Positions 41,317-64,000 of a stretch of DNA of 64,000 bases are shown one piece after another. This stretch comes from Polyangiales bacterium (GTDB lineage: Bacteria; Myxococcota_A; Polyangia; Polyangiales; Ga0077539), in assembly GCA_046351535.1 (NCBI GenBank), contig JAXLYG010000023.1:1-64000 (forward strand). The letters are read 5' to 3'. Within the stretch, counting starts at the first letter, position 1, and each line of letters starts with the position of its first letter. Position numbers and translations under genes: made by a program. Under the pieces are notes generated by a model. The model saw only the letters and a program-made list of their open reading frames with translations, was not told the DNA's origin and searched no databases.

Positions 41317-41382
41317 CGCGAGCGGCGCGACGGTATCACGCTGCGACCCGGCCGGAACAACTCCCGTCGAGCCTTCGAAGTG

Positions 41383-42786
41383 TTACCGGAACACGGCGCT
41401 CGACCGGCCTCTGCGGGTGCCTCGGGGCCTTCGCACCGCGAGCCTGCGGGGCCTCTCCCTCGGACTCGGATCCGCTTCGGGCGCGCGTCGCGCGTGCAGC
41501 ACCGACTCGCTCCGAACGCTCGCTTCTGCGGCTCCTGCGACGGCTTCGACGGGGAGCAACATCGCAGCGTCGGCGTCGCGGAGCGTGCGAGACCACGCCC
41601 GGGTCATCCTCCGATCGCCTCCTCCGTCGCGGGGCATGAGCCCTGCGCTGACGTGTACGGCGGGCGCATCGGGCGAGGCCCTGTGTGAATTGACCGTCCA
41701 CAGCGGGAGGTATCCCGCCGACGCGACGGCGAGGCGCTCACCCCTGCGTTCGAAGCGCAGCACGGCGAGCAGGCCCGCGCGGGTCCTCGCGTCGAGCGAC
41801 ACGTGGGGATGCCTGAGGTCTTCGAGGAGCGCTGCCTCGGCGTTGGCGCCCTGATTCGAAACCAGGTTGCCGAGCGAGTAGTAGAGCGGAACGAGCCTGC
41901 CCCCCGCGTCGATCCACTCGGCGCGCAGCGGGACGTGGGGGTGGTGACCGATCACCGCGTCTGCGCCGGCCTCGGCGACGCGACGAAAGAACGCGCGCTC
42001 CACGGGCGCGACGCGGTCCTGATACTCGCTGCCTGCGTGGAGCGAGACCATCACCGCGCCGCAGCGCGCACGGGCCTCTCGCACGGCGCGAAGGAAGCGC
42101 TCCTCCTCGGCGGGGACCTCGGGCCTCGCGATGGCGACACGCGCGCGATCGGGTCCGGGGATCTCCATGTCGAAGTTGAGGAGGCGCGTCGCGGCGAGCA
42201 CGCAGAGCGTCGAGCCCGCGAGCGGAAACACCTGCGGCGTGAGGGGATCCTCGCCCGCGAGCGCGGCGCCCACGGGGGTGACGTGACGGCTACGAAGCGC
42301 GCGCACGGTCTCGTCGACGCCCGCGACGCCCTGATCGAAGACGTGGTTGTTGGCCGACGACACCGCGTCGACGCCCGCCACGGTGAGCGCGTCGAGGAAC
42401 GCGGGATGCACGTTGAAGCGCATCTGCTCGCGCGACACGGGACGCGACGCGGCCACCGGGGTCTCGAGGTTCACGAGCGCGAGGTCCGCCGCGCGCAGCA
42501 CCGGCGCGACGGGCGCGAGGAGCGCGAAGGTCCCGTAGGCATCGACCGCATCGAGCACCTCGGCGTGCGGAACGAGGTCTCCCGCGAAGACCACCGTCGC
42601 GGCGGTCGGCGGCTCCTCCGCGGAGGCAGCGGGGAGCTCCCGCACGGACTCGGTGACGATGGGCGCGGTGAGCGCGGCGCTGATTGCGGTCGCGCGAACG
42701 GCCACCGACGGACGCGGATCCGCGTACGCGGACGACGCGCCGAGGAGCGCGCACACGAGCGAGAGGAGGGTGGTCGAGCGGCCCAC
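41383..42786 (-). CDS. CapA/PgsA-like metallophosphatase (poly-gamma-glutamate capsule biosynthesis family), secreted
   Basis: Signal peptide (LLSLVCALLGASSAYADP). Calcineurin-like motifs (VVFAGDLVPH; LALVNLETP; SSANNHVFDQG; IGHHPHV). Confidence 0.75.
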   Translation of the reverse strand: MGRSTTLLSLVCALLGASSAYADPRPSVAVRATAISAALTAPIVTESVRELPAASAEEPPTAATVVFAGDLVPHAEVLDAVDAYGTFALLAPVAPVLRAADLALVNLETPVAASRPVSREQMRFNVHPAFLDALTVAGVDAVSSANNHVFDQGVAGVDETVRALRSRHVTPVGAALAGEDPLTPQVFPLAGSTLCVLAATRLLNFDMEIPGPDRARVAIARPEVPAEEERFLRAVREARARCGAVMVSLHAGSEYQDRVAPVERAFFRRVAEAGADAVIGHHPHVPLRAEWIDAGGRLVPLYYSLGNLVSNQGANAEAALLEDLRHPHVSLDARTRAGLLAVLRFERRGERLAVASAGYLPLWTVNSHRASPDAPAVHVSAGLMPRDGGGDRRMTRAWSRTLRDADAAMLLPVEAVAGAAEASVRSESVLHARRAPEADPSPRERPRRLAVRRPRGTRRGRSSAVFR

Positions 42787-42825
42787 GTCGTCGCCGGTAT
42801 CACGGCGCGAAGTGGAAGGTGAAAT

Positions 42826-43682
42826 TCAGTGCTGACCGGTGAGGACCTGCGCGGGCGCGGTGAGGATCTGCGTGGGGTTGGCGCCCTGCACGCCGGGGAT
42901 CGGGAGCCCCTGCCCTCCCCCGTTGTTGAGACCGGGAACGGGCACCGGGAAGGTGTTCTGCGACGACTGCCCGCCCGCGATGCCGGGGATGGGCACGCCG
43001 GGGATCGGTCCCGCGCTCGCGCCGTTGTTCATGCCGGGGATCGCAGGCGTCGGGATCGCCGGAGGACGCCCCGTGCCCGACTGGAACCACGACTGCCCCA
43101 TCGAGCGCGCGCCCGCATAGACAGCCTGTGCGGCGGCCATGCAGGGCGTCTCGAGGAGCCCGCGATGCTCCGAGCGACAGATCGCGTTGAGGTCTTCGTG
43201 GAGGCGGTCGTCGATGCGCGTGCGACGGCCCTCGGTGCGGTCGAGGGCGAGGCCGGTGCCGCCATAGTTCCGGTAGCCGAAATCGTGGCGGTTGCAGGCG
43301 CGGTTGAAGCTCTCGCGGAACGGCCCGCTGATCTCCCCGAAGGAGCACCCGTCGGCCGACCAGTCGAAGGGCGGCGGATGGAGCGCGCGCATGTTCTGAA
43401 AGGTCTCGAGCGGGAGGTTCATGTACCCGTCGGCGGTCATCACGAGGAGCTGCCTCGGCGCATTGGCCGGGAGCGGCGTTCCGAGCGCGGTTCCGCGCGA
43501 GCGCGTGGCGCGACCGCGGGAGCGACCCGACGAGGCCGTGGCGGGGCTGTTGCCGAGCGCGCCGTTCATCACGTTGGTGGCCGCCCCGACCATCTGATCG
43601 ATGGGGACGTTCTGCGCAGAGACCGTGGGCGAGAGGGCCGCGACGGCGACCCCGAGCGTGAAGGCCGTGACGTACGTTCGCA
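42826..43682 (-). CDS. secreted prokaryotic phospholipase A2 (Phospholip_A2_3-like) with Pro/Gly-rich C-terminal tail
   Basis: ATG near 43682 (MRTYVTAFTLGVAVAALSPTVSAQ). DGCSFGEISGPFRESFNRACNRHDFGYRNYG matches the catalytic His-Asp segment of Streptomyces-type secreted PLA2 (…ACARHDFGYRNY…). C-terminal IPGxx repeats. Confidence 0.75.
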
Positions 43683-43719
43683 TGGCGGGCAACGGTGCTC
43701 GAAAGAGGGGCGCCGTGCA

Positions 43720-44576
43720 ACCCTCTCCCCGTCCCTCTCCCGCGAAGCGGGAGAGGGTGCCCGTTGGTAGCTGCCATGCCCTCACCCCGCCCTCTCCCGC
43801 CAGAGGCGGGAGAGGGAGTCCGCGAGGCGACCCCGTCGCGCAGCGCCACGCAGGAAGCCTGGCACCGCGTCACCGTGTCGCGCGACGCGCCTGTCACAGC
43901 CCCACGCGCGAAGCGAACGCGCGACACGGCGGCGCGGCAACGAGCGCGCGGTCATCGCCCTCCGCCATCGCCGCGCTGTCTGTCATCGCCCTCCGCCCGT
44001 CGCCGCGTCTCGTCGCGTGACGTCTCCCTCTCCCGCCAGAGGAGTCTGACCGCCATTGGGGAGTTGACGGCGCCAGACGCTTCCCGTCGCGCCTGGGGTT
44101 CGGCCCGCGTGAGAGGGACGCGCGTGACGCGCCCAGGGCTCGCCCCCCGAGGGATGTACGCGATCGGGGGGCTCGGCCTGGGCTTCATCAAGGCACGGAT
44201 CACCGGTCTTCGACCGGTTCAGAAGGCATGGCGAGGCTCTCTCTGCTGAACCCTCGAAGAGGGTGATCCGTGCCTCGTCATAGCCCTGGCTGAGCCCCCG
44301 ATCGTGTACATCCCTTGGGGGGCGAACCCTGGGCGCGTCACGCGCGTATCTCCCTGGGCGCGTCACGCGCGTATCTCCCTGGGCGCGTCACGCGCGTATC
44401 TCCCTGGGCGCGTCACGCGCGTCCCTCTCACGCGGGCCGAACCCCAGGCGCGACGGGAAGCGTCTGGCGCCGTCAACTCCCCAATGGCGGTCAGACTCCT
44501 CTGGCGGGAGAGGGCGGGGTGAGGGCATGCCAGCTACCAACGGGCACCCGACTCCCGCTTCGCGGGAGAGGGACGG
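43720..44576. repeat. non-coding nested inverted-repeat element (outer arms ~43720-43820 / 44505-44576; inner ~117-bp arms 44019-44137 / 44404-44520)
   Basis: Direct reverse-complement matches were found by eye. gacgtctccctctcccgccagaggagtctgaccgccattggggagttgacggcgccagacgcttcccgtcgcgcctggggttcggcccgcgtgagagggacgcgcgtgacgcgcccagg (44019-) reappears as its reverse complement at 44404-. The outer arm ggtgcccgttggtagctgccatgccctcaccccgccctctcccgcc matches the reverse complement of 44520-44565 with 1 mismatch. Only R/A/G-rich spurious ORFs overlap the region. Confidence 0.8.
44328..44427. repeat. 4 x 25-bp perfect tandem repeat (cctgggcgcgtcacgcgcgtatctc) within the inverted-repeat element
   Basis: Read directly in the sequence. 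The unit duplicates the distal end of the inner inverted repeat. Confidence 0.85.
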
Positions 44577-45819: not shown

Positions 45820-46155
45820 TCACTCGGGGTGGTACACATATCGGGCGTAGCGCTCCGCATAGAACGCCTCGAGCGACAGGCGCGATTCGAACAGCTCCGA
45901 CCAGAGCTCGTAGCCATCGACGAGGGGCGCTCCGTCCTGCTCATAGCCGATTCGCTCGGGGTGGATGGCGAGGTCGCGATCCTTCGCATAGTCGAGCGAC
46001 TCGGCCCTGGCCTTCTCATGGGCCTCGGTCCAGTCTCGCGCGTTGAAGGAGACGACGCGCTCCTCGAAAACGTTGGTTCCGCACTCTTGGTCACGCCGAA
46101 GTGGTAGACGGTTCGGATGGCGTACCAGGGCATCGGGGTCACCCCTGTACGGCAT
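45820..46155 (-). CDS. hypothetical protein (111 aa), acidic/aromatic-rich
   Basis: NVFEERVVSFNARDWTEAHEKARAESLDYAKDRDLAIHPERIGYEQDGAPLVDGYELWSELFESRLSLEAFYAERYARYVYHPE has a natural-looking composition. A second frame upstream (MPWYAIRTVYHFGVTK) suggests a possible frameshift near 46080. Confidence 0.45.
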   Translation of the reverse strand: MPYRGDPDALVRHPNRLPLRRDQECGTNVFEERVVSFNARDWTEAHEKARAESLDYAKDRDLAIHPERIGYEQDGAPLVDGYELWSELFESRLSLEAFYAERYARYVYHPE

Positions 46156-46653
46156 CCTTGAGCGTCCGGGCGAGCGCCATCACCTCCTCGGCGGGGCACG
46201 CGCGCACGAAGACCTGCACCCACGCCGGTAGCATCACGCAGTGTGAGGCATAGAACAGCCTCTCGTCTCGCATCGGGCGTCCGGCGAACACGAAGTCGAT
46301 GCCGTCGGTCTCGTCGAGTCGCAGGTCGAGCGACGTACCGGCTTCCCGCTCCAGACGCGCCTGCTCGTCGATCAGGGGGCGCAGCTTGCGCTTCACCATC
46401 AGCACGGTGTCACTCCCCGAGAAGAGCCTCGCGTCGGCCTTGACCTCGAGCAACCGGGGACCTTGCAAGTCGGCCAGCGTCTTCGCCTGCATGTTGATCC
46501 GGAACACCTCGAAGATGACGTGCGGCCCATGCTCCCTGAGCATCTCGTCCTCTCTCTTGAAGTGTGCCTCGACGGCGTCGTGCCCCTCGATCGTCGTGCC
46601 ATCGACGACGTTCACGACTCGGACATTGTCGTAGCGCGTGTCGGTCTCTTTCA
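46139..46653 (-). CDS. hypothetical protein, NTF2/SnoaL-like fold suspected (171 aa)
   Basis: ATG near 46653 (MKETDTRYDNVRVVNVVDGTTIEGHDAVEAHFKREDEMLREHGPHVIFEVFRINMQ...). The pattern of polar and hydrophobic residues fits a cone-shaped alpha+beta barrel, but this is tentative. Confidence 0.5.
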
Positions 46654-46724
46654 TCGGTTGCACACGTCGCGCAGCCGTCGTCGATCTGGCGCTGCCGATG
46701 GTAGGTCTCTGGAGCGCTCCTCGC

Positions 46725-47432
46725 TCACACCCGACGCGCACGCCCCGCGACGCGCCCCAGGAACGGCGCCACATGCGCCCATGCCTCTCGCGGCCGCGCT
46801 TGCAGGAGGAGGTGCGGCGCATCAACCAGCGCGAACGCAGCGTCCGGTCTCACCGCGCGCATGCGTTCGGCGCTTCGGGCGCTCACGAGTCGATCTCGCC
46901 CCGCGTTCAGGCACAACACAGGACAGCTCAGTTGCTGGAACTCCCGTGCGACATTCACCCGGGAGACCGAGGCGACGCGCTCCGCGATGACCTCACCGCG
47001 CACACCGAGCATCGCACGTCGAACGGTTGCCGCGAGCGCAGCGTCGCCGCCGGTCAGGAACACGCCCAACAGGAACTCGGGCGGCGGTCGGCTCCACATC
47101 TGCGAGGGAACGAGCCGGGAGAGCGCAGAGAGCGGACCGGACAACGGAGGCTCGATGAAGGTGGTGCTGAGCACGACACCCACCACCCGAACGCTCCGAG
47201 CCGCGAGAAGGATCGCGAGCGGTCCAGAGAACGACTCCGCCACGAGCACCACGTCGCCGTCTGGCAGACTGGCCTGCACCCGTTCCGCGAGCTCGGGATA
47301 GCGCTGCGCGCCGTCGTCAGGGAGCCGCAATCGCGCAACTGCGAGCCCCGGTGGCGCGGCTGCGATGAAGGGCGCGAACAGATCCCCCGTTCCGTCGAGA
47401 CCGGGAAGCAACACCGTGGTGGTCTGGCTCAC
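46725..47432 (-). CDS. alpha/beta hydrolase family protein
   Basis: VLLPGLDGTGDLFAPF...DVVLVAESFSGPLAIL carries the nucleophile elbow (GxSxG-like ESFSG) and matches the fold pattern. Confidence 0.7.
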   Translation of the reverse strand: MSQTTTVLLPGLDGTGDLFAPFIAAAPPGLAVARLRLPDDGAQRYPELAERVQASLPDGDVVLVAESFSGPLAILLAARSVRVVGVVLSTTFIEPPLSGPLSALSRLVPSQMWSRPPPEFLLGVFLTGGDAALAATVRRAMLGVRGEVIAERVASVSRVNVAREFQQLSCPVLCLNAGRDRLVSARSAERMRAVRPDAAFALVDAPHLLLQARPREAWAHVAPFLGRVAGRARRV

Positions 47433-47529
47433 GTCGCGGTCTCCGGGTCAGCGCGCGGCCGAAGCGTGCCCGCATGAACCGCCCTCGACACGCGACGTGT
47501 GAGCCCCTCGCCCGTCTGGAACCGTCGCG

Positions 47530-48018
47530 CTACTCAAGCTTCGCAAGCTCCTCCAGCAAGCACGCCTGAAGCTCTTCCCCCAGTTGAAAGAAACCGTCCG
47601 CCGACAAGATCACGTGTCGCGGGCTGGCCCGGTAGGAGCCAGGAAGAAGCTGTCCACCCCTGACCTCGAACCCGCCCACGATGTCCTCAGGCGGCACGGC
47701 GCCGTTCGGCGTTCGAGTCCGCTGGTCGATGACGTAGAGCCAGCCATCACCCTGTCGCCGGGCCGCCGCGACAAGGCCCGAAGCGCCCGGCCCACGACGG
47801 GCGATCACGTCGTGCATGAAGTCTACGAACACGCGGTTCCTCGCGAAGATCGCCGGGGTGATGTCCTCCCCGGGCTTCGGGGGCCGGAGCAGAACGCCGA
47901 CGATCGCCTCGGGCGCAAGCCCGCGCGCGAACACATGTTCGCCAGGCAGACAGCTTACATAGTGCTTGATCCCCTCGGGCGTATTGGACTCGTAGATGCT
48001 CATTGAAAACTCAGCCAT
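47530..48018 (-). CDS. hypothetical protein (163 aa)
   Basis: ATG at 48018 (MAEFSMSIYESNTPEGIKHYVSCLPGEHVFARGLAPEAIVGVLLRPPKPGEDITPAIFARNRVFVDFMHDVIARRG...). Natural-looking composition. No family recognised. Confidence 0.5.
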   Translation of the reverse strand: MAEFSMSIYESNTPEGIKHYVSCLPGEHVFARGLAPEAIVGVLLRPPKPGEDITPAIFARNRVFVDFMHDVIARRGPGASGLVAAARRQGDGWLYVIDQRTRTPNGAVPPEDIVGGFEVRGGQLLPGSYRASPRHVILSADGFFQLGEELQACLLEELAKLE

Positions 48019-48234
48019 CGCACCCCGCTCCTCGCGCTCAACCGCCTGCCACGACTGCCCCAGAGAGATCGACGGTATCATGGGCGCTCGTCGCCCGCCC
48101 CGCCAGCCGCGCCTCGCGCGAAATCGGGGGCGTCACGGTCACCACCCGAGCTGCCATGTCGGTCTCCTACCTCAGTTCATACGGAATGGCGAGCGCGGCC
48201 GGTGTCCGCACACCCGAAACACACGCCCGTCCGA

Positions 48235-48915
48235 TCAAGCCCCCGTCGCGACACCGTTCATGCGGAGCAGCGGTCGGAGACCGTACTCATCTACGGTGCT
48301 CCGACAGAACGCAGATTGGAAGCGCGGATCCTGCACCGACTCGTAGACCGGCCGCCCTCCCGCCTCGTAGCCGACGACGCGCCCATGAACGACACAGGCG
48401 AGCGGAAACGCGCCCGCGAGCCGCACCGTCGCCGAGGGACTGAACGGGTGAGGCGTGTCTCCGCGGGTCGAGGCCACAGGACCGAGCTCCACCACGAGCT
48501 CGGCGCGAAGACCGTTGGCCGCGAACACGAACTGAAACGCGCGAACGGGCCGCGCCACGCCGCCGAGTCCCACCGGATACACGACGCGGCTGACGGTCTC
48601 CTCCGCGGGAATCTCGACGCGCACGCCCGCAAGAAGGAGCTGCGATCGGTCGGGCGTCAGGTCGATCGTCCAGTCGAGCAGCTCGATCTCGTCGCCCCCG
48701 GGACGACCCACCGACTGAAAGCTGTAGGTGAGTCCGCGGCCCTCCTCGACGACGAAGCCACCGTGGAGCGCGAAGGTTCCAGTCGCATCGGTCACCGCGC
48801 CGGTCACGGGTGCAGGCGTGAGGTCGGGCATGAAGCCGGGTACGTGCGTCCCGCCCGCGTCGCACGCGACGAGGAGGGCGAAGGTCACGAGATTGAGCGC
48901 GACGCGATCGGGCAT
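48235..48915 (-). CDS. hypothetical lipoprotein
   Basis: Internal ATG (MPDRVALNLVTFALLVACDAG: lipobox LVAC). Beta-rich mature region. Confidence 0.5.
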   Translation of the reverse strand: MPDRVALNLVTFALLVACDAGGTHVPGFMPDLTPAPVTGAVTDATGTFALHGGFVVEEGRGLTYSFQSVGRPGGDEIELLDWTIDLTPDRSQLLLAGVRVEIPAEETVSRVVYPVGLGGVARPVRAFQFVFAANGLRAELVVELGPVASTRGDTPHPFSPSATVRLAGAFPLACVVHGRVVGYEAGGRPVYESVQDPRFQSAFCRSTVDEYGLRPLLRMNGVATGA

Positions 48916-49027
48916 ACGGTCACTTCGTGGACCTCGACGATACACCGACGGCCCGCCTCTCACGCGCGATCCCTGCTAACCCTCCAGTAACGTCAGTCCG
49001 CCGCCGATCACCGTCGCTCGTCGTCGT

Positions 49028-49118
49028 TGCCGAACGGCTGGCCGATGTGCCGCCGCAGCGGGTGGAGCGGGTTGGCAATGCGTGAGGTGGGGGCGGACGG
49101 CACCATCGGCTTGTTCGG
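49028..49118. repeat. attC-like imperfect inverted repeat, copy 1 (91 bp)
   Basis: Begins gccgaac (RYYYAAC-like, one mismatch) and ends gttcggc (GTTRRRY-like). Inner paired boxes ggctggccgatgtgcc / ggcaccatcggc. Lies ~120 bp downstream of CDS 49241..49849. Confidence 0.5.
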
Positions 49119-49240
49119 CAAGCCTGACTCGGCGACGAACCTAACCGTTGCGATCACGTGCTGCCCCTCCGAGACCGTTGTGCCTTGGTTCGTTGCATCC
49201 ATCCTCGGGGCGCATTCTCTCCCAATTTCGCTCTTATGGA

Positions 49241-49849
49241 TCAACTCTCTTCGTCCGCAGTTCGCTTGGGCTTCGATCCACGCCCTTCACTCACCGTCCG
49301 TACAGATGCGGCGCCCGCTTCAGCCTCCACCGTCGGCAGCCCGATGTACTTACCCTGAAGCGCGACATGCACTCCGTCCGCGCGGTAGTCCGTGAGGATC
49401 ACCTCCACAGTGGATGATAACCGCGAGTAGGTGAGTGATCTGTAGCTCTGCCTAATGGGGGCTATGCCCTCGAGCTCGGGTTGCTCGACCGTGACTCCGT
49501 GGGGGTCGTCGCGATCGGGCACCCCGAGGACGCGAAACGCATCCTCCACCGACTTGATCCCGGCAAGCAGTCGGTCGAGCCGCTGCCGCTCCTCCGGGGA
49601 GATGACGGCAAACAGCAGGTGTCGCTTCGACTCGGGAGCCGCGCCGCCGCAGAATGGGCAGTGGTAGATCCGCAGCGACGCGTTGCCGACCTCGCACGTA
49701 CCGTCGCTGCTAGGGTCGGGGTACACGAAGTTGTACTCGTTCAGTTTCGGGTCGAAGACGATCGGCGATTGCGGATCGTCGGCAGCGCGCTCCAGATAGT
49801 GGCAGGCGCACGACTGCTCAGTCACGGAAGCAAAGGTCGGCTTCGCCAT
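49241..49849 (-). CDS. hypothetical zinc-ribbon-like protein (cassette ORF)
   Basis: ATG at 49849 (MAKPTFASVTEQSCACHYLERAADDPQSPIVFDPKLNEYNFVYPDPSSDGTCEVGNASLRIYHCPFCGG...). CxC…C…CPFC Cys cluster. Lower local GC. Confidence 0.55.
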   Translation of the reverse strand: MAKPTFASVTEQSCACHYLERAADDPQSPIVFDPKLNEYNFVYPDPSSDGTCEVGNASLRIYHCPFCGGAAPESKRHLLFAVISPEERQRLDRLLAGIKSVEDAFRVLGVPDRDDPHGVTVEQPELEGIAPIRQSYRSLTYSRLSSTVEVILTDYRADGVHVALQGKYIGLPTVEAEAGAASVRTVSEGRGSKPKRTADEES

Positions 49850-49913
49850 TGGATCACCTCCACCAACACCGCCGAACGGCCGAGACGGGCCTCGCCAGCG
49901 CGATTGCTTGGAG

Positions 49914-50003
49914 GCCGAACGGCTGGCCGATGTGCCGCCGCCCCGAGGGCCGTGCGGGCTCCGCAAGGGCAGCGGTGGCGGTCGGCACCATCGGCTTGTT
50001 GGG
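49914..50003. repeat. attC-like imperfect inverted repeat, copy 2 (90 bp)
   Basis: gccgaac ... gttgggc, where the terminal core GTTGGGC fits GTTRRRY exactly. Same internal boxes as copy 1. A partial extra gccgaacggcc lies at 49871. ~168 bp downstream of CDS 50171..50707. Confidence 0.5.
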
Positions 50004-50170
50004 CATCCCGCTCGTGCTCGCATCACACGCGTCCGACGCTCTCTGCCGCCTCCTGCTCGTAGCTTTGTTCATCTACCTCTCCGTAGCTGCACCGCCGTGC
50101 CCGTCGGCCAACGCCTGCCGCTCCCTAGCGGGCCGTCGGAGCGGAGGCACATCGAACGGCAGCAAAAGAA

Positions 50171-50707
50171 TCACGCTTCGGAGAAATCCAGGTTCATTGG
50201 GGCGGACTTGATTGAGTACATCGACTGCATGTTGGTGGCGGGCACCGAATCATCGACAGCCTCGAAGCGCACGTCCGCCCAGAAGAGCTCGCCGCTCCCC
50301 GTGAGAATATTCGAGATGAAGATCGCGTTGGCCTCCTCGGGGACGTCGAGCACGCACGCGTAGTGAGTCCATTCTGTAGTTCCGGAGACAGCTGGACGCG
50401 TCTCCATATTGTCGAACGCTAGAGTTCGTCGTGAGCCGTCCGACTCAGCGCCATCGATGCGGAAGCAAATCGCGGCGCGGCCGGTTACATCTACCGTGCG
50501 TAGAGCAGCCGAGAGCCGGACGCGCCTCCCACGATATGGATCGGGCTTGAATACCTGAAACATTGCGCCGAAGCCATCGGCCCCATCAGCCGAACGCCAC
50601 ATCCGAACAACGGGCTTTCCGCTGTGCACCTCAGAACTGACCTCAGCCGAATACGCGTCGCTCCTTGAACCCGTAATGCCCCAGTCCTTCACCGCACAGG
50701 TGCCCAT
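50171..50707 (-). CDS. hypothetical protein (178 aa, cassette ORF)
   Basis: MGTCAVKDWGITGSRSDAYSAEVSSEVHSGKPVVRMWRSADGADGFGAMFQVFKPDPYRG... with natural-looking composition and a lower GC than the flanks. Confidence 0.5.
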   Translation of the reverse strand: MGTCAVKDWGITGSRSDAYSAEVSSEVHSGKPVVRMWRSADGADGFGAMFQVFKPDPYRGRRVRLSAALRTVDVTGRAAICFRIDGAESDGSRRTLAFDNMETRPAVSGTTEWTHYACVLDVPEEANAIFISNILTGSGELFWADVRFEAVDDSVPATNMQSMYSIKSAPMNLDFSEA

Positions 50708-50757
50708 CGGAGTGCCTCCTTCTCGACCGTAGAGGAAATTCGGTGCTTTCGCAGGCT

Positions 50758-50848
50758 GCCCAACGGCTGGCCGATGTGGCGCCGCCCCGAGTCAGGTGAG
50801 TAGTTCGCGAGTTGAGTGGGTGCGGTCGCCACCATCGGCTTGTTCGGC
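50758..50848. repeat. attC-like imperfect inverted repeat, copy 3 (91 bp)
   Basis: gcccaac (exact RYYYAAC) ... gttcggc. Internal boxes ggctggccgatgtggc / gccaccatcggc. Confidence 0.5.
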
Positions 50849-51190
50849 CCGGCGGGTCCAGTGGGCTGATCCACGGGGGCCACAGCCAACCGCTCCGTCG
50901 CTCGGAGTCCGTTGCCCGTCGCTCGCCTCGTGAGTCCCGCCACCGTCACCCTTGCTTTTTGTCGTTCAACACCCATTGCCGCCAACTCGTCAAGAGCTTT
51001 CCGACCGCGTCGACGCCATGACCAGCGAGTTTCTAGCCTGTGAGGGGAGATCGCGGGCGTGGATGGACAGGCGCGTCGGGCGCCCGCTCCGCGCCTCGGA
51101 AACTCTGGTCTACGGACCAATGCACCGGCACCGCGGCATCAGATCAAACCCTCCCGACTACACCTCCCCGTGTCCGAATCTCCTTACCGA

Positions 51191-51568
51191 CTATCGAGCT
51201 GTGCACGCCCTTCCCGAGACGATGGCACCAGAATCCGAAATCACCGCAGCGGTATTACAATGATACTGACTTGTGAGTCTTCTTGAACAGTACGTCGACT
51301 CATCGCACGCGAGTGCGCAGACACGTGACGTCGTATCCACCAAACAAACCACGCCGACTCCACCGCAATCGAAAATATTTTCGCAGTATTTCGTGCACAC
51401 TCCTTGCGGAAACTGAGCGCTTCGCAGGCAAAATGTGCTTGGTGGGCAATCCGCGTTGAGTGAACACGGGGCCGAAATTGGCGAATATTCCTCTGTGGCC
51501 CCACCACACCCTCCACCCTCCCATGCTGACGCGACAGCAAGAATTACCCCCACCTTCACGGAGTTCAC
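51191..51568 (-). CDS. small secreted Cys-rich protein (125 aa, cassette ORF)
   Basis: Signal peptide (MNSVKVGVILAVASAW). 14 Cys (…CSLNADCPPSTFCLRSAQFPQGVCTKYCENIFDCGG…). Low GC. Confidence 0.45.
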   Translation of the reverse strand: MNSVKVGVILAVASAWEGGGCGGATEEYSPISAPCSLNADCPPSTFCLRSAQFPQGVCTKYCENIFDCGGVGVVCLVDTTSRVCALACDESTYCSRRLTSQYHCNTAAVISDSGAIVSGRACTAR

Positions 51569-51612
51569 GGGCTCAACTCCCTACGTCGCCGCCGACCACC
51601 GCCGCCGAAGCT

Positions 51613-51703
51613 GCCGAACGACTGGCCGGTCTGCCGCCGCAGCGAGCCAGGCGCGTAGTTGTTGAGTGAAGTGCAAGCGGTCGGCAGCACCGGCTTGTTC
51701 GGC
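51613..51703. repeat. attC-like imperfect inverted repeat, copy 4 (91 bp)
   Basis: gccgaac ... gttcggc. Begins 34 bp after the stop of CDS 51737..52321. Confidence 0.5.
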
Positions 51704-51736
51704 ATTGTGTTCATCAATTTCGGAGGTCTTCCTCAG

Positions 51737-52321
51737 TCAAAATATCCCGCCGCCGCAGAGCACGAGACCACGGCCGTCGGCCAATGGCAACAGTGTCGGC
51801 GCGAAATACCGAGCCTGCCACTGGGGCGCTTCGGTAGTCTGCCGCGCGCTGTTCGCTGACGAGATCTCGTACGCGACCACTCCGCCTGTGATCCAGCCGA
51901 TCGCGGTCGTGACCATGGGAACGACCGAGAGATCATTATCCGCGAGTTGGAACGGAACACCTACCAGGTAGCCCGCGAACCCGCCTGCCCAGCCGCCGAG
52001 CATGGTCCACCCATAGCCGCCGCCTCCCCCCATCGCATTGCCGGTGAGCGTGATGCCTCCCGGAACCGCGAACCACGTTCCGACGGCGCCTACCACGATG
52101 ATCGAGATTGTACCGGCGCTCGAACTGCCTTCGAAGCCCGCCAGCGCGAGGCCGTAGGTCAAGCCGAAACCGAGCGCGAAGGCCGCGCTCCCTCCGCCAA
52201 CTTCCACGAGCACGCGCCCCGTACTGATAGGACTGATCGGGTGCCCCTGAGCCCACACGTCCGAGGCGCTCATGCACACGGCAAGCGAGAGCGGAACAGA
52301 CCCGGCGATTCGCCAACTCAC
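51737..52321 (-). CDS. secreted Gly-rich hypothetical protein (194 aa, first cassette ORF)
   Basis: Signal peptide (MSWRIAGSVPLSLAVCMSASDVWAQG). Gly/Ala/aromatic-rich repeats (GFGLTYGLALAGFEG; GGGGGYGWTMLGGWAGGFAGYL). Confidence 0.5.
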   Translation of the reverse strand: MSWRIAGSVPLSLAVCMSASDVWAQGHPISPISTGRVLVEVGGGSAAFALGFGLTYGLALAGFEGSSSAGTISIIVVGAVGTWFAVPGGITLTGNAMGGGGGYGWTMLGGWAGGFAGYLVGVPFQLADNDLSVVPMVTTAIGWITGGVVAYEISSANSARQTTEAPQWQARYFAPTLLPLADGRGLVLCGGGIF

Positions 52322-52539
52322 GGGTATGTAGCGCGCAGGCGCCCTGACAGATATGGCATTCGGCTCACGAGCGCTTGGAGGTGAAGGTCTCGGTCTGGCC
52401 CCAATCGACGGCGAGCACTACTGTTCTTGGTAGGTCGCTTGCCCCTATACGCCGCATCTCTCGGCTCACCTAGTGCTCCTCGTTGACCGCCGCTCATCGC
52501 GGCTGCCGAACATCTCATTCACCCGCAGGACGATAACAC

Positions 52540-52990
52540 GCATACGCGCGTCGCGTCCGAACACCTGTCTGCACGCGACGTCCGAACACCCATACGCGCG
52601 TCGCACGGTAACACCCTTCTGCATGCCGCAACAGAGAAACGTCCCGCCCGCCGCGTCCGCTCCCTCCCCGCCCCTACATCCCCCTACCCCACGCGACACA
52701 CACTCCCTCCGTCCGCCACGCCCGCACGCTCCCCTTCACTGAACAACACCCTCTCCGACACTGTGCAACACTCTCCCGGATACTCTGTGACACTATATTT
52801 CATGCGTGTCACACTCGCCCTCCCTTGAAGATCTCCGACACTCTCCCCGTGACACTACAACTCTCTCCGAGAAGATCTCCCACTCTCTCCTGGTGACACT
52901 ACAACTCTCTCCCGCGACATCTCCCAGTCTCTCCCCAAACGACTCGCGCCGCTCCCCTCCCCCCGCGACCTCGCGCCGCTGGACCGGTCG
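52540..52990. other. strand-asymmetric polypyrimidine (C/T/A-rich, G-poor) low-complexity tract with direct repeats and a palindrome
   Basis: The top strand has almost no G for ~450 bp. Direct repeats catacgcgcgtcgc x2, gtccgaacacc x2 and gtgacactacaactctctcc x2. Palindrome ctgtgacactatatttcatgcgtgtcacac includes an AT-rich tatattt box. No plausible ORF. Confidence 0.6.
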
Positions 52991-53210
52991 CGACCCACGT
53001 CCGGGTCTTGTCGCCTGCTCTCGCGAGGGCTGTATCAGCTAGGCAACGCTCAGCCATCGCCCCGCTCCGGAGCTTCGGGGAGCTGTCAGCAACACCCCCC
53101 GTTCGCCGGAGCGAGACGTCGTCAGTGACCATCCTTCACGCGCGGCCACAGCGCGGCCACGGAGGCGCTCCCGCGGACCGGAGCGCCCCCTGTGGGCCCG
53201 GCGTCAGCGG

Positions 53211-58966: not shown

Positions 58967-59659
58967 GTGACCTTTCCGCTCGCGTCCGCATCAAGCTCGA
59001 CTCCCGCGCGTTCTGCCACCGCGCGCACCGGCGCGCTCCCCTGGATCGCGGGGCTGCTCGTGACCGTCGGCGTCGTGGCGGCGATCAGCCGCTACCTGCT
59101 CCCGCACGCGCTCCACCAGTCGATCACGGCGCCGCTCTATGGGAGCTACGCCCCCGAGCAGCTCCCCGTGCTCGCGCGGCACCCGGTTTCTGAGGCGCTC
59201 CATCGCCTCGGCGGGGCGCTCTACCTGCTCCTCGGAGTGATGCAGTTCAACCCGTCGCTCCGCGCGCGTCGACCGACGCTCCACCGCTGGTCGGGCAGGG
59301 TCTTCGTGGCGCTCTCGATCGTGGCCGCGGTGTCGGGCGCCTACATGGCCCTCGCGTTCGGCTACGAGCCCGGCGAGCGCGCGCCGAGCGTGCTCTTCGC
59401 CGCCGTGATGATCGTGTCGGCGCTGATGGCCGTGTACGAGATCCGCCGCGGACGCGTCGAGGCGCACCGCGCGTGGGTCACCCGCTGCTTCGCCGTGGGC
59501 CTCGGGATCGCGACGATTCGCGTGATGGCGGTGATCGCGCTCCACACGACGCCGTGGACGACGCGTCAGCTCATCACGCCCATCTTCTGGATCGGCTGGA
59601 CGCTTACCCTCGCGATCGCCGAGCTCCTCATTCGGAGTCGGAGGCGCTCCGCTCAGTGA
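58967..59659 (+). CDS. DUF2306-like membrane protein
   Basis: Four or five TM helices (WIAGLLVTVGVVAAI; LGGALYLLLGVMQF; VFVALSIVAAVSGAYMAL; VLFAAVMIVSALMAV; FAVGLGIATIRVMAVIAL) and a conserved HRWSGR-type loop. Confidence 0.6.
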   Translation: MTFPLASASSSTPARSATARTGALPWIAGLLVTVGVVAAISRYLLPHALHQSITAPLYGSYAPEQLPVLARHPVSEALHRLGGALYLLLGVMQFNPSLRARRPTLHRWSGRVFVALSIVAAVSGAYMALAFGYEPGERAPSVLFAAVMIVSALMAVYEIRRGRVEAHRAWVTRCFAVGLGIATIRVMAVIALHTTPWTTRQLITPIFWIGWTLTLAIAELLIRSRRRSAQ

Positions 59660-60295
59660 GCGGCGCGGGGGGCGCGGAGGTCGAAGCGGATCGTGACCTC
59701 GTCGCGAATGAGGTTGTCGGGCATCCCGGGGTACACGAGCCCGAAGTCCCGGCGGTTGATGACGAACTCGCTCCGCGCGGTGACCTCCGACGCGCCCACC
59801 GCGATGGTCGCGGGGAAGGTGATCGACCGCGACTGACCGTGCAGCGAGAGCGTTCCGGTGACCGTGTGGGTCGCGCCGTTGGAGCCGCCCACACTCGATC
59901 GCCGTCGACTCGAAGGTCGCGCGGGGAAAGCGCGCCACGTCGAAGAAGTCGGCCGACTTGAGGTGGTTGGTGAGTCGATCCCGGTCGGTGCTCACCGAGG
60001 CCGTCTCGATGGTCACCGAGATGCGGCTGTTCTCGGGGTGCGCCGCGTCGAGGTCGATGGCGCCGTTGAACGCGCCGAAGGTGCCGTTGTGGCTCCCGGT
60101 GACCTTGGCCCCGGTGAACCCGAGGCTCGACGTGGGGGGCGCGAAGACGAGGTGCTCGCTCCCCGCTGCGGGAGCGCTCGGTGCAGCCGTCGTCGCCGCG
60201 GTGGAAGTCGCGCGCGGGACGCCCGCGTTGGGATCCTTGCAGGCCGCGAGCGCGAGGATCGGGAGCGAGAGGAGCAGTGTGGCGTGGTGGCGCAT
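59653..60295 (-). pseudogene. YceI-family periplasmic lipoprotein with single frameshift
   Basis: The N-terminal 134 aa sit in frame of ORF 58991..60931 (MRHHATLLLSLPILALAACKD…NGTFGAFNGAIDLDAAHPENSRISVTIETASVSTDRDRLTNHLKSADFFDVARFPRATFESTAIE). The C-terminal 79 aa sit in ORF 59653..59892 (GGSNGATHTVTGTLSLHGQSRSITFPATIAVG…). The junction is at a g-run (gtgggcgg, ~59888); a 1-bp change restores a full-length YceI. Confidence 0.65.
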
Positions 60296-60426: not shown

Positions 60427-61704
60427 TCAGCCGAAGGTCCAGCTCCGCTCGACCCAGCGGTCTCCGACGAAATAGAACTCTCGCGCGCGGTGTTCGAAGA
60501 GCACCGTGGCGGTGATCGTCTGCGCGCCCGCGTGGAGCACCTCCGACGCGTACTTCACGAACCCGACGCCGTACTCGGGGTGCGCGACGACGACGCCGCC
60601 TCGGGTGCGCGGCGAGAGCGCGTCGAGGGGCGTCGGTGAGGGACCGGCGTCCTTGACCTTGCGGCTCCATGCGCTGCGACGCGTCGAGGCGAGCTTCGCG
60701 GTGAGCTTCTCGAAGGGGACGCGCTTCTCCTTTCGCAGCGCGGCGAGGTCGTACTCGTGCGCGTCGTGGGCGTGCAGCACGAGCAGGGCGTCGCGCGACC
60801 TCACCCACACGGGCTTCGGCGTGAAGAGCGGCATCGTCGGGCTCAGGCGCATGGCCTTGAGGTCGAGGGCGATGACCTCGCGCTCCTTCGGAAACACCCA
60901 GTGCACGGTCTCGTCGCAGAGCAGGAACCACGTCGCATCAGGGCCGGGCGCGGCGGAGCGAACGGGGTGAGAGCCCGGCGAGATCTCCGTGTGATGGCCG
61001 TCGCGGTCGAGCGTGAGAAAGTGATCGTGCACGACCGCGAGCGCGCGTCCCGCGTCGTCGATGGCGCCGTGACGCCCCTCACGGAGCGACTCCCACGAGG
61101 CGAAGAGTCGGTCGAGCGAGAGCGGCGTCACGCCGTCGCGTCCCGCGCGATGGAGCCGCTCGAACCAGATCACGAGCGCCTCGTCGTCGGGCAGCGGAAT
61201 CACATCGACGCGGTCCAACGGACGCGGCACCGCGTACCGACGCCCGCCCGACTCGATCACCGCGGGGGCCTCTGGAACAGGGAGTTCGAGCGGCGTCACG
61301 GCGCCGTCCTCTGCCCACCACGAGGGTCTGCGTGAGGGGTCCTTGAGGTCGATCGCGGGCACCACCATCACGCGTTCACCGACGGCGAAGACCGAGGTGA
61401 GCGAGGTCCACGGCGCGTTGAACGGCAGCGCCTTCACGCGCGCGGCGTCGAGGTCGATCTCGTAGAGCTTGTAGGGGTTGTCGTGGTGGTGCCGCGCGAC
61501 GGCGAAGACCCTTCCGCTGCGCGTTCGCGCCACGCTCGACGCGAAGAAGCCGGGGATCGACTTCACGGTCATGGGCCACGCGCCGAGGTCGAGCGCGTAG
61601 CTCACGTCGGGCATCGAGGCCGAGAGAAAGACCGTGTCGCCCCACGCGATTCCGAGGTCGCTGCTGGTGGGGAGCTTCGCCGTGCGCGCGGGGGTGATCG
61701 CCAT
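60427..61704 (-). CDS. hypothetical protein (425 aa)
   Basis: ATG at 61704 (MAITPARTAKLPTSSDLGIAWGDTVFLSAS…). The upstream part of the ORF-track ORF is S/G/V-rich antisense sequence of the neighbouring gene and was excluded. W/F/H-rich natural composition. Divergent from 61793..63682. Confidence 0.55.
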   Translation of the reverse strand: MAITPARTAKLPTSSDLGIAWGDTVFLSASMPDVSYALDLGAWPMTVKSIPGFFASSVARTRSGRVFAVARHHHDNPYKLYEIDLDAARVKALPFNAPWTSLTSVFAVGERVMVVPAIDLKDPSRRPSWWAEDGAVTPLELPVPEAPAVIESGGRRYAVPRPLDRVDVIPLPDDEALVIWFERLHRAGRDGVTPLSLDRLFASWESLREGRHGAIDDAGRALAVVHDHFLTLDRDGHHTEISPGSHPVRSAAPGPDATWFLLCDETVHWVFPKEREVIALDLKAMRLSPTMPLFTPKPVWVRSRDALLVLHAHDAHEYDLAALRKEKRVPFEKLTAKLASTRRSAWSRKVKDAGPSPTPLDALSPRTRGGVVVAHPEYGVGFVKYASEVLHAGAQTITATVLFEHRAREFYFVGDRWVERSWTFG

Positions 61705-61792
61705 CGTGGCGCCGACGGTATCGCAGCCTCGCGCCGCGGATGGAGCACGATCGCACCCACGCATTTTGAGCCCCCCGGCGACCTCCGATACC

Positions 61793-63682
61793 ATGCGCGC
61801 CATGAACTCGCTTCGATTCGCCCTCGTCGCCTCGGCGCTCACCCTCGCGGCGTGCGCGCCGAAATCGACCTCGGGAAACGTCTCGTTCAACGACGTGCAC
61901 TCCACCGACGGAGACCCCGGCGATGTCGTCACCACCGACACGCCGACGCCGACGGACACCCCTACGCCCACCGACGTCACGACCGATGCGCCCGATCCGC
62001 AGGACGTCGTCACCCCCACCGACACACCGACCGACACGCCGCCGCCGCTCGACGCGCCCGTCGACGTGGTGACCGACGTCTCCGTCGACGCGGTGACCGA
62101 CGCGCCCGCCGACGTTCCGACGGATGCGCGCCCGAGCTGTCGCAGCGACCGCGAGTGCGCGGCGAGCTCCCAGGTCTGCGACCTCTCACAGTCGCGCTGC
62201 GTCGACTGCGTGCGCGACGCCGACTGCCTCACGGCCGGCACGCGGTGCCTCTCGAACCGCTGCGTGACGCCCGTGATGTGCACGAGCTCCCGCATGTGTC
62301 CCGGCCAGGTCTGCGACACGACGCGGAGCCTCTGCGTCGACTGCGTGGCCGACGTCGACTGCGCGCCCACCGAGATGTGCCGCGCCAGCGCGTGCGTGCT
62401 GCGTCCTCCGACCTGCGCGTCGGACGCCGAGTGCGCAGCGCCGACGCCGCGCTGCAACCCCACGTCACACGCCTGCGTGGCCTGCAACGTCAACGCAGAC
62501 TGCGGCCCGTCGAGGGCCTGCACCGCGGATCACGTCTGCGTCTCGACGGCGTGCACCCCCGGCGCGACGGACTGCTTCGACTCCCGCACGCGTCGCGTCT
62601 GCGCGGCCGACGGGATGTCGTCGATGAACACCCCCTGCCCCGACGCGACCGGAGGCACCGGCGCATGCGCCGCGGGCGCCTGCACGATCACCTGCGCCGC
62701 GGGCCTCGCCAACTGCGACGGGATGGCGGCCAACGGCTGCGAGACCTCGCTCAACTCGAACCCGCTCAACTGCGGCGCGTGCGGAAACCGCTGCGCCGCC
62801 GTGGGCGACAGCTCGACCCCCGTGTGCACCGCGGGCCGTTGCAGCCTCGCGTGCGCGGCCGGTCGCGGAGACTGCGACGGCGTCGTTTCGAACGGCTGCG
62901 AGACCGACCTGCTCACGTCGAACACCAACTGCGGACGCTGCGGAAATACGTGTTCCACGGGCGCGTGCAGCGCCGGCGCGTGCCCGCGCATCCTGCGGAC
63001 CTTCACGGGCCCCACGGGCATCGGCACCAACTGCCTCGCCCCCAACGACGACGGGTCGTGGGCGGGCGCCGGGGTGATGACCGGCGCGGGTGTGCCCATC
63101 GACATCACGCCCGCGTTCGCGATGGGGCTCCAGTACTTCGGCGCCAACTACCGGGCGATGTACGTGAACAACAACGGCAACATCACGTTCCGCGGCGCGC
63201 TCGGGACGTACACGCCGGCGCCCTTCCCCGTGGCGATGCAGCCGATGACCGCGCCGTGGTGGGGCGACGTCGACACGCGCGGCGTCGGCCAGCCCATGCG
63301 CAACAACGTGTGCTTCGTGGTCGAGCCCTCGCGGGTCATCGTGACGTGGGATCGCGTGGGGTACTTCTCGTCGCACGACGATCGGCAGAACACCTTTCAG
63401 CTCCTCCTCTCGACGCGCGCGGGCCTCGCGGCGGGCGACTTCGACGTGGAGTTCCGCTACGAGCGCTGCGAGTGGACGACGGGCGACGCCTCGGGCGGCG
63501 CGGGCGGCTTCGGCGGAACCCCCGCGCAGGTCGGCTTCGACGCGGGTGACATGCGCACCTACTTCTCGCTCCCGATGTCACGCACGATGGCGATCCTCGA
63601 CGTGTGCACGTCGTCGAACGTCGGCACGCCCGGCATCTGGCGCTTCCAGGTCCGCGGCAGCGTGATCACCCCCGGCCTCTGA
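61793..63682 (+). CDS. lipoprotein with Thr/Pro/Asp linker, myxobacterial Cys-rich repeats and C-terminal NIDO domain
   Basis: MRAMNSLRFALVASALTLAACAP (lipobox LAAC). TDTPTPTD linker. About 9 Cys-rich repeats (CxxDxDCxxGxxCxxxxCV type). C-terminal 250 aa (YFGANYRAMYVNNNGNITFRG…YTPAPFP…APWWGDVDTRG…VTWDRVGYF…NTFQLLLSTRAG…FDVEFRYERCEWTTGDASGG…AQVGFDAGD…YFSLP) follows the NIDO domain consensus. Confidence 0.8.
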   Translation: MRAMNSLRFALVASALTLAACAPKSTSGNVSFNDVHSTDGDPGDVVTTDTPTPTDTPTPTDVTTDAPDPQDVVTPTDTPTDTPPPLDAPVDVVTDVSVDAVTDAPADVPTDARPSCRSDRECAASSQVCDLSQSRCVDCVRDADCLTAGTRCLSNRCVTPVMCTSSRMCPGQVCDTTRSLCVDCVADVDCAPTEMCRASACVLRPPTCASDAECAAPTPRCNPTSHACVACNVNADCGPSRACTADHVCVSTACTPGATDCFDSRTRRVCAADGMSSMNTPCPDATGGTGACAAGACTITCAAGLANCDGMAANGCETSLNSNPLNCGACGNRCAAVGDSSTPVCTAGRCSLACAAGRGDCDGVVSNGCETDLLTSNTNCGRCGNTCSTGACSAGACPRILRTFTGPTGIGTNCLAPNDDGSWAGAGVMTGAGVPIDITPAFAMGLQYFGANYRAMYVNNNGNITFRGALGTYTPAPFPVAMQPMTAPWWGDVDTRGVGQPMRNNVCFVVEPSRVIVTWDRVGYFSSHDDRQNTFQLLLSTRAGLAAGDFDVEFRYERCEWTTGDASGGAGGFGGTPAQVGFDAGDMRTYFSLPMSRTMAILDVCTSSNVGTPGIWRFQVRGSVITPGL

Positions 63683-63937
63683 CCCGCAGCGAGCGGCGCG
63701 TTCACGCCCGCTCCGTCCCATTCCCCCCAATCACCGCTTCGTCCGACCGGCACCGTGCGTGTCGGCGACGCACGCGTCGGAATCGTCCCTCCGTCTGCCC
63801 TGAATGTCATAGCCGCGGGTCGCACCACAGAGTCCGACCGCGCCCGACGGGAACACAGGGCGGGCATTCGGAGCGTGACGTCCGTCGCGCCTCCGTCGCG
63901 GTCTCCCATTCACTCGCTGACGAAAGGAGATCGTGCG

Positions 63938-64000
63938 ATGACCTCGCGCTGTTTCGTCGCGTGCGCGTTCGCGTGCGCGTGCTCTCTCGCGCTCTGGGGC
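63938..64000 (+). CDS. start of a secreted/lipoprotein gene (partial, runs off window end)
   Basis: AAGGAG SD followed by ATG at 63938 (MTSRCFVACAFACACSLALWG: signal-peptide-like). Only 21 codons are visible. Confidence 0.3.
   Translation, partial: MTSRCFVACAFACACSLALWG

Follow-up and report, generated by a model that had tools for sequence, protein, structure and literature searches.

What would a nidogen-like (NIDO) domain, best known from animal proteins such as nidogen, mucin-4 and alpha-tectorin, do at the end of a myxobacterial lipoprotein, and where would it be displayed? The question is raised by a gene at 61793-63682 (+) of a 64,000-nucleotide stretch of a Polyangiales genome (contig JAXLYG010000023.1, positions 1 to 64,000; hereafter the window). 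A first-pass annotation had proposed a lipoprotein, with the corresponding signal peptide, in which Cys-rich repeats are fused to a NIDO domain, and the domain anatomy bears this out. Judged by its sequence, the gene product is most likely anchored by lipid in the cell envelope of a Polyangiales-type myxobacterium. That the protein serves as a displayed binding module, either an adhesin or a matrix tether, is a reading for which we consider the case evenly balanced. The features of the gene are as follows.

61793..63682, + strand: complete coding sequence of the NIDO lipoprotein (629 aa plus stop), supported by an open frame, a GC content at third codon positions (GC3) of 0.935, an 88%-identical full-length orthologue (P0001) and 13 further full-length orthologues
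61793..61855, + strand: predicted lipoprotein signal peptide, aa 1-21, read from the sequence by inspection (basic n-region, hydrophobic core, lipobox L-A-A-C, Cys21)
61856..62137, + strand: low-complexity Asp/Pro/Thr/Val-rich linker, aa 22-115 (~95 aa; TDTPTPTD..., DVVTDVSVDAVTD...), from sequence composition
62138..62551, + strand: Cys-rich block A, aa 116-253, three 8-Cys double units with the spacing C-x5-C-x4/6-C-x6-C-x2-C-x5-C-x5/6-C-x4/5-C
62552..62983, + strand: Cys-rich block B/C, aa 254-397, one 6-Cys unit followed by two 8-Cys 'C..G..DCDG...NGCE......CG.CG..C' units
63005..63679, + strand: C-terminal NIDO domain, aa 405-629, Pfam PF06119, with two predicted disulfides (Cys414-Cys507 and Cys559-Cys605)

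Identification and modelling of the NIDO domain

Only one Pfam family matched the protein, NIDO (PF06119), with a score of 125.6 bits where the gathering cutoff is 25 (E 3.1e-36, well outside the range of chance), confirming the C-terminal NIDO domain that the first-pass annotation had recognized from its motifs. Those motifs (YFG, YVNNNGNITF, YTPAPFP, APWWGDVDTRG, WDRVGYF, NTFQ, EWTTGD and GFDAGD) are all present. The match consists of two stretches, the best of which covers model positions 82-185 of 186; in P0031, a paralogue 70% identical to the domain, a single stretch covers positions 3-185.

The NIDO head was modelled with AlphaFold2 from a 74-sequence alignment, giving an all-beta fold with one short helix (predicted local distance difference test score, pLDDT, 93.5; predicted template modelling score, pTM, 0.91). 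Cys559 and Cys605 co-occur in 49 of the 53 sequences that have either, and Cys414 and Cys507 in 11 of 18, with Cys507 never found in the absence of Cys414. These two covarying pairs point to two disulfides, and hence to an extracytoplasmic protein. Outside the cysteines, NIDO is the best conserved region of the protein, with 49-69% identity among orthologues more distant than P0001.

The evidence for homology between the bacterial and the animal NIDO domain is the Pfam score. In addition, the bacterial profile was aligned by hhalign to the N-terminal part of human nidogen-1, in a copy not taken from a database record (probability 97.4%, E 1.5e-11, 190 columns, aa 409-624). Motifs common to the bacterial domain and this copy of nidogen-1 are DD, V-x-T/N-NG, AP-F/W-x-x-D-x-DT, VTW, NTFQ and SSN-G-x-G-x-W-x-F. 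Sequence searches of the PDB, with the domain as a single sequence or as the 74-sequence profile, returned no NIDO chain and only chance matches (cathepsin H, E 0.21; beta-lactamase, E 0.81), and a Foldseek search of the NIDO model against the PDB gave no match (best E 0.47, TM-score <0.25). A serine-protease reading of the segment GDASGG was dropped, as the fold is a beta-sandwich and no protease is among its neighbours.

The bacterial domain contains nearly invariant polar and glycine-rich motifs (NDDGS, NNNGN, GDVDTR and W-TTGDASGG), and its weak fold neighbours include the catalytic aldose 1-epimerases; both would suit a catalytic head whose substrate is a carbohydrate or some other extracellular polymer, with the stalk serving only to position it. 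However, most of the fold neighbours are non-catalytic accessory domains of larger enzymes, no catalytic family was detected by Pfam or NCBIfam, and in animals NIDO proteins are structural components of the matrix for which no enzymatic activity has been reported (10.1101/2020.07.27.223107). An enzymatic head is, in our assessment, improbable.

Signal peptide, linker and Cys-rich stalk

The signal sequence, MRAMNSLRFALVASALTLAA, is followed by Cys21. The n-region, h-region and lipobox ([LVI][ASTVI][GAS]C within the first ~35 residues) of a signal peptidase II substrate were recognized by inspection rather than by a trained predictor, and Cys21 is aligned in 14 of the 14 full-length orthologues, so that the lipoprotein signal peptide proposed earlier stands. 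The linker that follows is the least conserved part of the protein, with many indels and 26-43% identity among orthologues more distant than P0001 (78% for P0001 itself). Part of it is encoded by short tandem DNA repeats, for example at 62050-62114 (period 24, 2.7 copies).

A long low-complexity linker beside the anchor is a plausible protease target, and it is conceivable that its cleavage releases the stalk and the NIDO head into the extracellular matrix as a shed component. Alpha-tectorin, an animal NIDO protein, is reported to be lipid-anchored and to depend on release from its anchor for its function (PMC6881170), and short NIDO-only proteins with no obvious anchor exist. No cleavage site or dedicated protease gene was identified for the window protein, and we regard shedding as speculation with little likelihood.

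Residues 116-397 carry 46 of the 51 cysteines of the protein. Three double units of 8 Cys each (six half-repeats) come first, then a 6-Cys unit and a pair of 8-Cys 'DCDG..NGCE..CG.CG' units; counted by half-units this makes nine, in agreement with the roughly nine Cys-rich repeats of the first-pass annotation. Their assignment to TIGR02232 did not hold: that model gave no match at E<=1 on the whole protein, nor at E<=10 on the isolated Cys-rich segments. Block A, scanned alone as aa 115-253, instead just reached the TraA-type repeat model TIGR04201 (Myxo_Cys_RPT; cutoff 25), at 25.3 bits in four stretches, compared to 15.1 bits for the whole protein, and it aligns to the Cys-rich stalk of the TraA model (positions 304-389). 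For block B/C, the MXAN_6577-like model NF041328 (cutoff 100) remained below threshold, scoring 23.6 bits when the whole protein was scanned and 31.8 bits for the block B/C segment; these modules appear to be related to the MXAN_6577-like family but not members of it. The Pfam family Stig1 (PF04885) was likewise below threshold on block B/C (14.1 bits, cutoff 24.1), and precomputed PF04885 matches are present in some of the homologues.

The number of modules varies among orthologues, as expected for a spacer: the third block A unit is missing from some, and the C-type unit occurs in 1 to 4 copies. Identity among orthologues more distant than P0001 is 31-58% at the non-Cys positions of the stalk. 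The structure model of the stalk consists of short beta-hairpins (pLDDT 84.3, pTM 0.41).

Distribution and architectures of bacterial NIDO proteins

Full-length orthologues were found in metagenome-assembled genomes (MAGs) of Polyangiales and other Myxococcota, and several of them carry the NCBI product name 'nidogen-like domain-containing protein'. The automatically annotated proteins P0001, P0005 and P0011 are 88%, 51% and 47% identical to the window protein over approximately the full length; their whole architecture is alike (lipobox, acidic linker, Cys modules, C-terminal NIDO), and they differ from it only in sequence and in Cys module number. The exact sequence of the window protein is absent from a collection of 15 billion proteins.

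A search of 1.84 billion cluster representatives (50% identity) with the single NIDO sequence gave 5,202 matches at E<=1e-3 and 796 at E<=1e-30, and a pattern scan of one genome per GTDB species gave at least 580 confirmed NIDO loci. Given these numbers and the existing NCBI product names, the first-pass view that NIDO is rare in bacteria cannot be sustained; its view that bacterial NIDO is uncharacterised agrees with our literature searches (bacterial, myxobacterial, PEP-CTERM and PF06119 angles), which returned only papers on animals. Comparisons at the locus level were made with the best 80 of the at least 580 loci in species-representative genomes. These 80 are mostly from Polyangiales, Sandaracinaceae and other Myxococcota, with a few from Gammaproteobacteria (Alcanivorax, Steroidobacteraceae, Sedimenticola and Ca. 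Parabeggiatoa), and several genomes contain multiple NIDO copies.

Seventy NIDO open reading frames (ORFs) within the best 80 loci were sorted by architecture. The commonest layout (39/70) has a signal peptide, an N-terminal NIDO domain, a Cys-rich region (~45 Cys) and a MYXO-CTERM-like tail, while the layout of the window gene was found in 4, so that the MYXO-CTERM layout is about ten times commoner. Fourteen are NIDO-only, 9 begin with a signal peptide and N-terminal NIDO but have an incomplete or different tail, and the remaining 4 are larger or built in another way. Of the layouts with a stalk, the two are mirror images of each other, with NIDO at the tip far from the anchor. The MYXO-CTERM model of NCBIfam (TIGR03901) was reached by P0044 (21.2 bits, cutoff 20) and nearly by P0035 (19.8 bits), and the PEP-CTERM model (TIGR02595) by P0216 and P0230. 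Bacterial NIDO is thus joined to three anchoring or sorting signals: lipobox, MYXO-CTERM and PEP-CTERM.

The Myxococcota proteins of the commonest layout (P0031, P0035 and P0044) resemble the window protein in having a NIDO head (63-70% identical), a ~45-Cys spacer and a predicted lipid anchor opposite the head. In contrast to the window protein, their NIDO domain directly follows the signal peptide and their anchor is the C-terminal MYXO-CTERM. BLAST coverage is confined to NIDO, and the Cys spacers of the two types are therefore without detectable similarity.

As a separate observation, the NIDO head of the window protein shares more identity with the N-terminal NIDO of MYXO-CTERM paralogues (~70%) than with several lipoprotein heads of its own architecture (57-62% in the P0001-P0018 alignment). 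A quick neighbour-joining tree, drawn without support values, nests the MYXO-CTERM clade inside the lipoprotein-type NIDO sequences. This hints at a rearrangement of domain order during the evolution of NIDO proteins and is offered as a lead only.

Searches with NIDO alone also returned many proteins of ~250-360 aa that consist mostly of NIDO, some truncated by contig ends and some ending in PEP-CTERM. At the other extreme are giant tandem-NIDO proteins, P0240 (4,253 aa, at least 15 Pfam stretches, 2,609 bits) and P0241 (1,525 aa, at least 6 stretches). Six NIDO-only proteins from Sandaracinaceae and related MAGs (L059, L065, L072, L055, L080 and L064; ~280-320 aa where the start is clear) share a tail in their last 40 residues, ...T-x-(T/I)-(Y/D)-(D/F/Y)-S-(G/R)-GG... 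followed by a run of Arg, with no hydrophobic helix. NCBIfam models did not recognize this tail in P0167 or P0168, and it may be an undescribed C-terminal signal.

Comparison with TraA and other known systems

A parallel in design is TraA, the outer-membrane-exchange receptor of Myxococcus xanthus (PMC3325183, PMC11980579), for which a head of the PA14 type on a TIGR04201 Cys-rich 'rigid stalk', anchored through MYXO-CTERM, has been proposed (PMC3325183). The invariant Cys of MYXO-CTERM is its predicted site of lipidation, and the tag was shown experimentally to take TraA and MXAN_4924 to the cell surface via myxosortase and the type II secretion system (PMC11980579). The window protein resembles TraA in its distal head, its Cys-rich stalk, block A of which lies right at the threshold of the TIGR04201 model when scanned alone, and its predicted lipid anchor. 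TraA differs in its polymorphic PA14 head, its C-terminal MYXO-CTERM and its partner TraB, whereas the window protein has a conserved NIDO head and an N-terminal lipobox.

This parallel in layout (PMC3325183), together with the alignment of block A to the TraA stalk and the presence of several NIDO paralogues per genome, would be consistent with a kin-recognition receptor of the TraA type, in which NIDO heads on neighbouring cells bind each other homotypically and head polymorphism sets the specificity. However, NIDO is the most conserved part of the protein and not a variable one. The TraA family model NF033759 scored 25.2 bits on the window protein, far short of its cutoff of 750, and the match is confined to the stalk; neither PA14 nor MYXO-CTERM was matched in Pfam or NCBIfam, and no TraB/OmpA-type gene lies among the neighbours. 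A conserved head, unlike the polymorphic head of TraA, argues for a conserved ligand and against kin discrimination, and we hold a kin receptor to be very unlikely.

The animal NIDO proteins (nidogen-1/2, SNED1, mucin-4, alpha-tectorin, Mesh and DEX-1) carry a homologous domain and are also extracellular. In these proteins NIDO is likewise combined with rods of small disulfide-rich modules, which in animals are of the epidermal growth factor (EGF) type (10.1101/2020.07.27.223107). A further comparison is offered by CglB, an outer-membrane lipoprotein adhesin of M. xanthus with a domain of the animal-matrix type (PMC9946355). Like the window protein, CglB is a myxobacterial lipoprotein whose displayed domain is more familiar from matrix and adhesion proteins of animals; its head is of the von Willebrand A type and it is part of the gliding machinery. 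The likeness is one of design, with no sequence relationship found or tested.

Proposed role of the NIDO lipoprotein

From these observations we propose the following model. After export, the precursor would receive its lipid at Cys21 and be cut by signal peptidase II, so that the N-terminus of the mature protein is fixed in a membrane, most probably the outer membrane. As alignment and modelling show, a flexible, acidic, Pro/Thr-rich linker of ~95 residues comes first, followed by a rod of ~285 residues made of small disulfide-bonded modules (46 Cys, up to 23 disulfides), probably a rigid stalk, and by the compact, well-conserved all-beta NIDO domain at the far end. The covarying Cys pairs of NIDO and the 46 stalk cysteines fit an oxidising, extracytoplasmic location. 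The NIDO head would be the working part and would bind a ligand that is extracellular and conserved. This ligand might be a glycan or polysaccharide, from the organism's own matrix or from the surface of another cell, the choice of a glycan being speculative. The protein would then act as an adhesin or matrix tether, and not as an enzyme or a kin-discriminating receptor; it would work like the TraA-type stalked receptors (head, Cys-rich stalk, lipid anchor), with the polarity of the chain reversed and a different head. An adhesin or matrix-binding role had been suggested in the first pass, and it is a reasonable inference.

Several points weigh against this proposal. The surface exposure of the protein is something we infer from its sequence, and many lipoproteins of diderm bacteria face the periplasm. 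When the ORFs of the 80 loci were clustered all against all, no neighbour proved common to them, and the neighbourhood thus gives no functional hint. The most invariant segment of the bacterial domain, W-TTGDASGG-x-GG-x-GGTPAQ, faces unrelated sequence in the human nidogen-1 copy used here, so that the bacterial and animal domains may differ in what they do. A study of SNED1 describes NIDO as a domain without a structure, without a known interacting domain and without a clearly associated function, and no NIDO domain from animals or bacteria has a known ligand (10.1101/2020.07.27.223107).

The first of these points leads to a periplasm-facing lipoprotein that serves as a spacer or scaffold inside the envelope, for example in contact with peptidoglycan or periplasmic glycans. 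A lipobox alone does not imply surface exposure, the long linker and rod could span the periplasm, and disulfides form in the periplasm too. Relatives with the same head, however, use MYXO-CTERM and PEP-CTERM, which are surface-sorting signals (PMC11980579), and the giant proteins with at least 15 tandem NIDO domains look like extracellular fibres. We regard a periplasmic scaffold as unlikely, though deserving of some weight.

That many stalk proteins of Myxococcota appear to follow the TraA plan, with a NIDO head and a lipid anchor, is mildly interesting, and would add a second type of head to the TraA-style receptor design in social bacteria. By itself the single gene adds little, as it belongs to a populous family that is already automatically annotated, and the domain call can be reproduced with standard tools. 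A wider claim, which we think unlikely, is that these proteins make up an extensive and so far unstudied group of surface receptors in myxobacteria, running parallel to TraA, in which the head is a glycan- or matrix-binding module, perhaps metal-dependent via its conserved Asp/Asn loops. If it were true, the ligand of a tractable bacterial domain would provide the first molecular function for NIDO, including that of nidogen, mucin-4 and alpha-tectorin, and would also suggest a bacterial origin of this animal matrix domain. Bacterial NIDO proteins number in the thousands, and their simple, anchor-defined layouts appear to put the domain at the tip of a surface stalk. The bacterial head, with ~225 residues, two predicted disulfides and a confident model, is a possible practical route to the first NIDO structure and ligand.

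Gene model and gene neighbourhood

The reading frame of 629 codons plus stop is free of internal stops, and its GC3 is typical of true genes in a window of 70-72% GC, which supports a genuine gene. The start was set at the methionine of MNSLRF, since the orthologues begin there; the start in the first-pass annotation agrees with the orthologue starts to within three codons. A longer GTG-started version from 61634 was rejected: it overlaps the divergent upstream gene, its GC3 is lower and it is without orthologue support. The residue range ~430-680 given for NIDO in the first-pass annotation follows the numbering of this longer ORF. Long minus-strand ORFs over the gene (62465-63376, 62530-63147 and the 5' part of 60427-62523) were dismissed as antisense shadows.

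The gene looks monocistronic. Scans for promoters and terminators showed nothing sigma-70-like upstream, nor any terminator from the NIDO stop codon to the start of the next ORF, and neither an Rfam family nor a tRNA was found in the window. Nearby genes encode a DUF2306 membrane protein, a 425-aa protein and an M16 peptidase pair, and one further neighbour is a frameshifted YceI gene. The 425-aa protein is encoded by the divergent upstream gene (60427-61704, -), has no Pfam match and no signal peptide, and is common only to L001, a contig of a close relative. The neighbours are shared with L001 only and not with L002, and synteny with L001 ends at the NIDO stop codon. The 51%-identical orthologue P0005 is surrounded by entirely different genes. 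The only recurrent neighbour in the 80 loci is a gene for a ~248-aa Cys-rich lipoprotein, which abuts or overlaps the 3' end of the NIDO/Cys-rich/MYXO-CTERM gene in 10 of them (for example L041, 5548-6294, +).

Downstream of the NIDO gene, a new ORF (63937-64000, +) starts behind a strong AAAGGAG ribosome-binding site and encodes a hydrophobic, Cys-rich N-terminus (MTSRCFVACAFACACSLALWG) before it is cut by the end of the window. It is without counterpart in L001, where a gene for a 1,563-aa multihaem cytochrome follows the NIDO gene. Upstream, the YceI-like lipoprotein gene (59653-60295, -) is frameshifted near 59893, and the joined frames give a full-length YceI match (137.7 bits); this is either a decaying gene or a sequencing error. 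The ~770-bp YceI segment is absent from the otherwise syntenic L001.

Elsewhere in the window, the region ~46000-53000 has a GC content of 0.62-0.67, compared to 0.70-0.75 in the rest, and GC skew is strongly negative at 50-54 kb. The ORFs of this region are short and have no Pfam match except for one DUF6980, and neither tRNAs nor Rfam matches mark its borders; the region may have been acquired. A three-gene run at 36169-43785 (-) encodes a 1,715-aa tetratricopeptide repeat (TPR) protein, a PGA_cap (poly-gamma-glutamate capsule synthesis-type) protein and a prokaryotic phospholipase A2.

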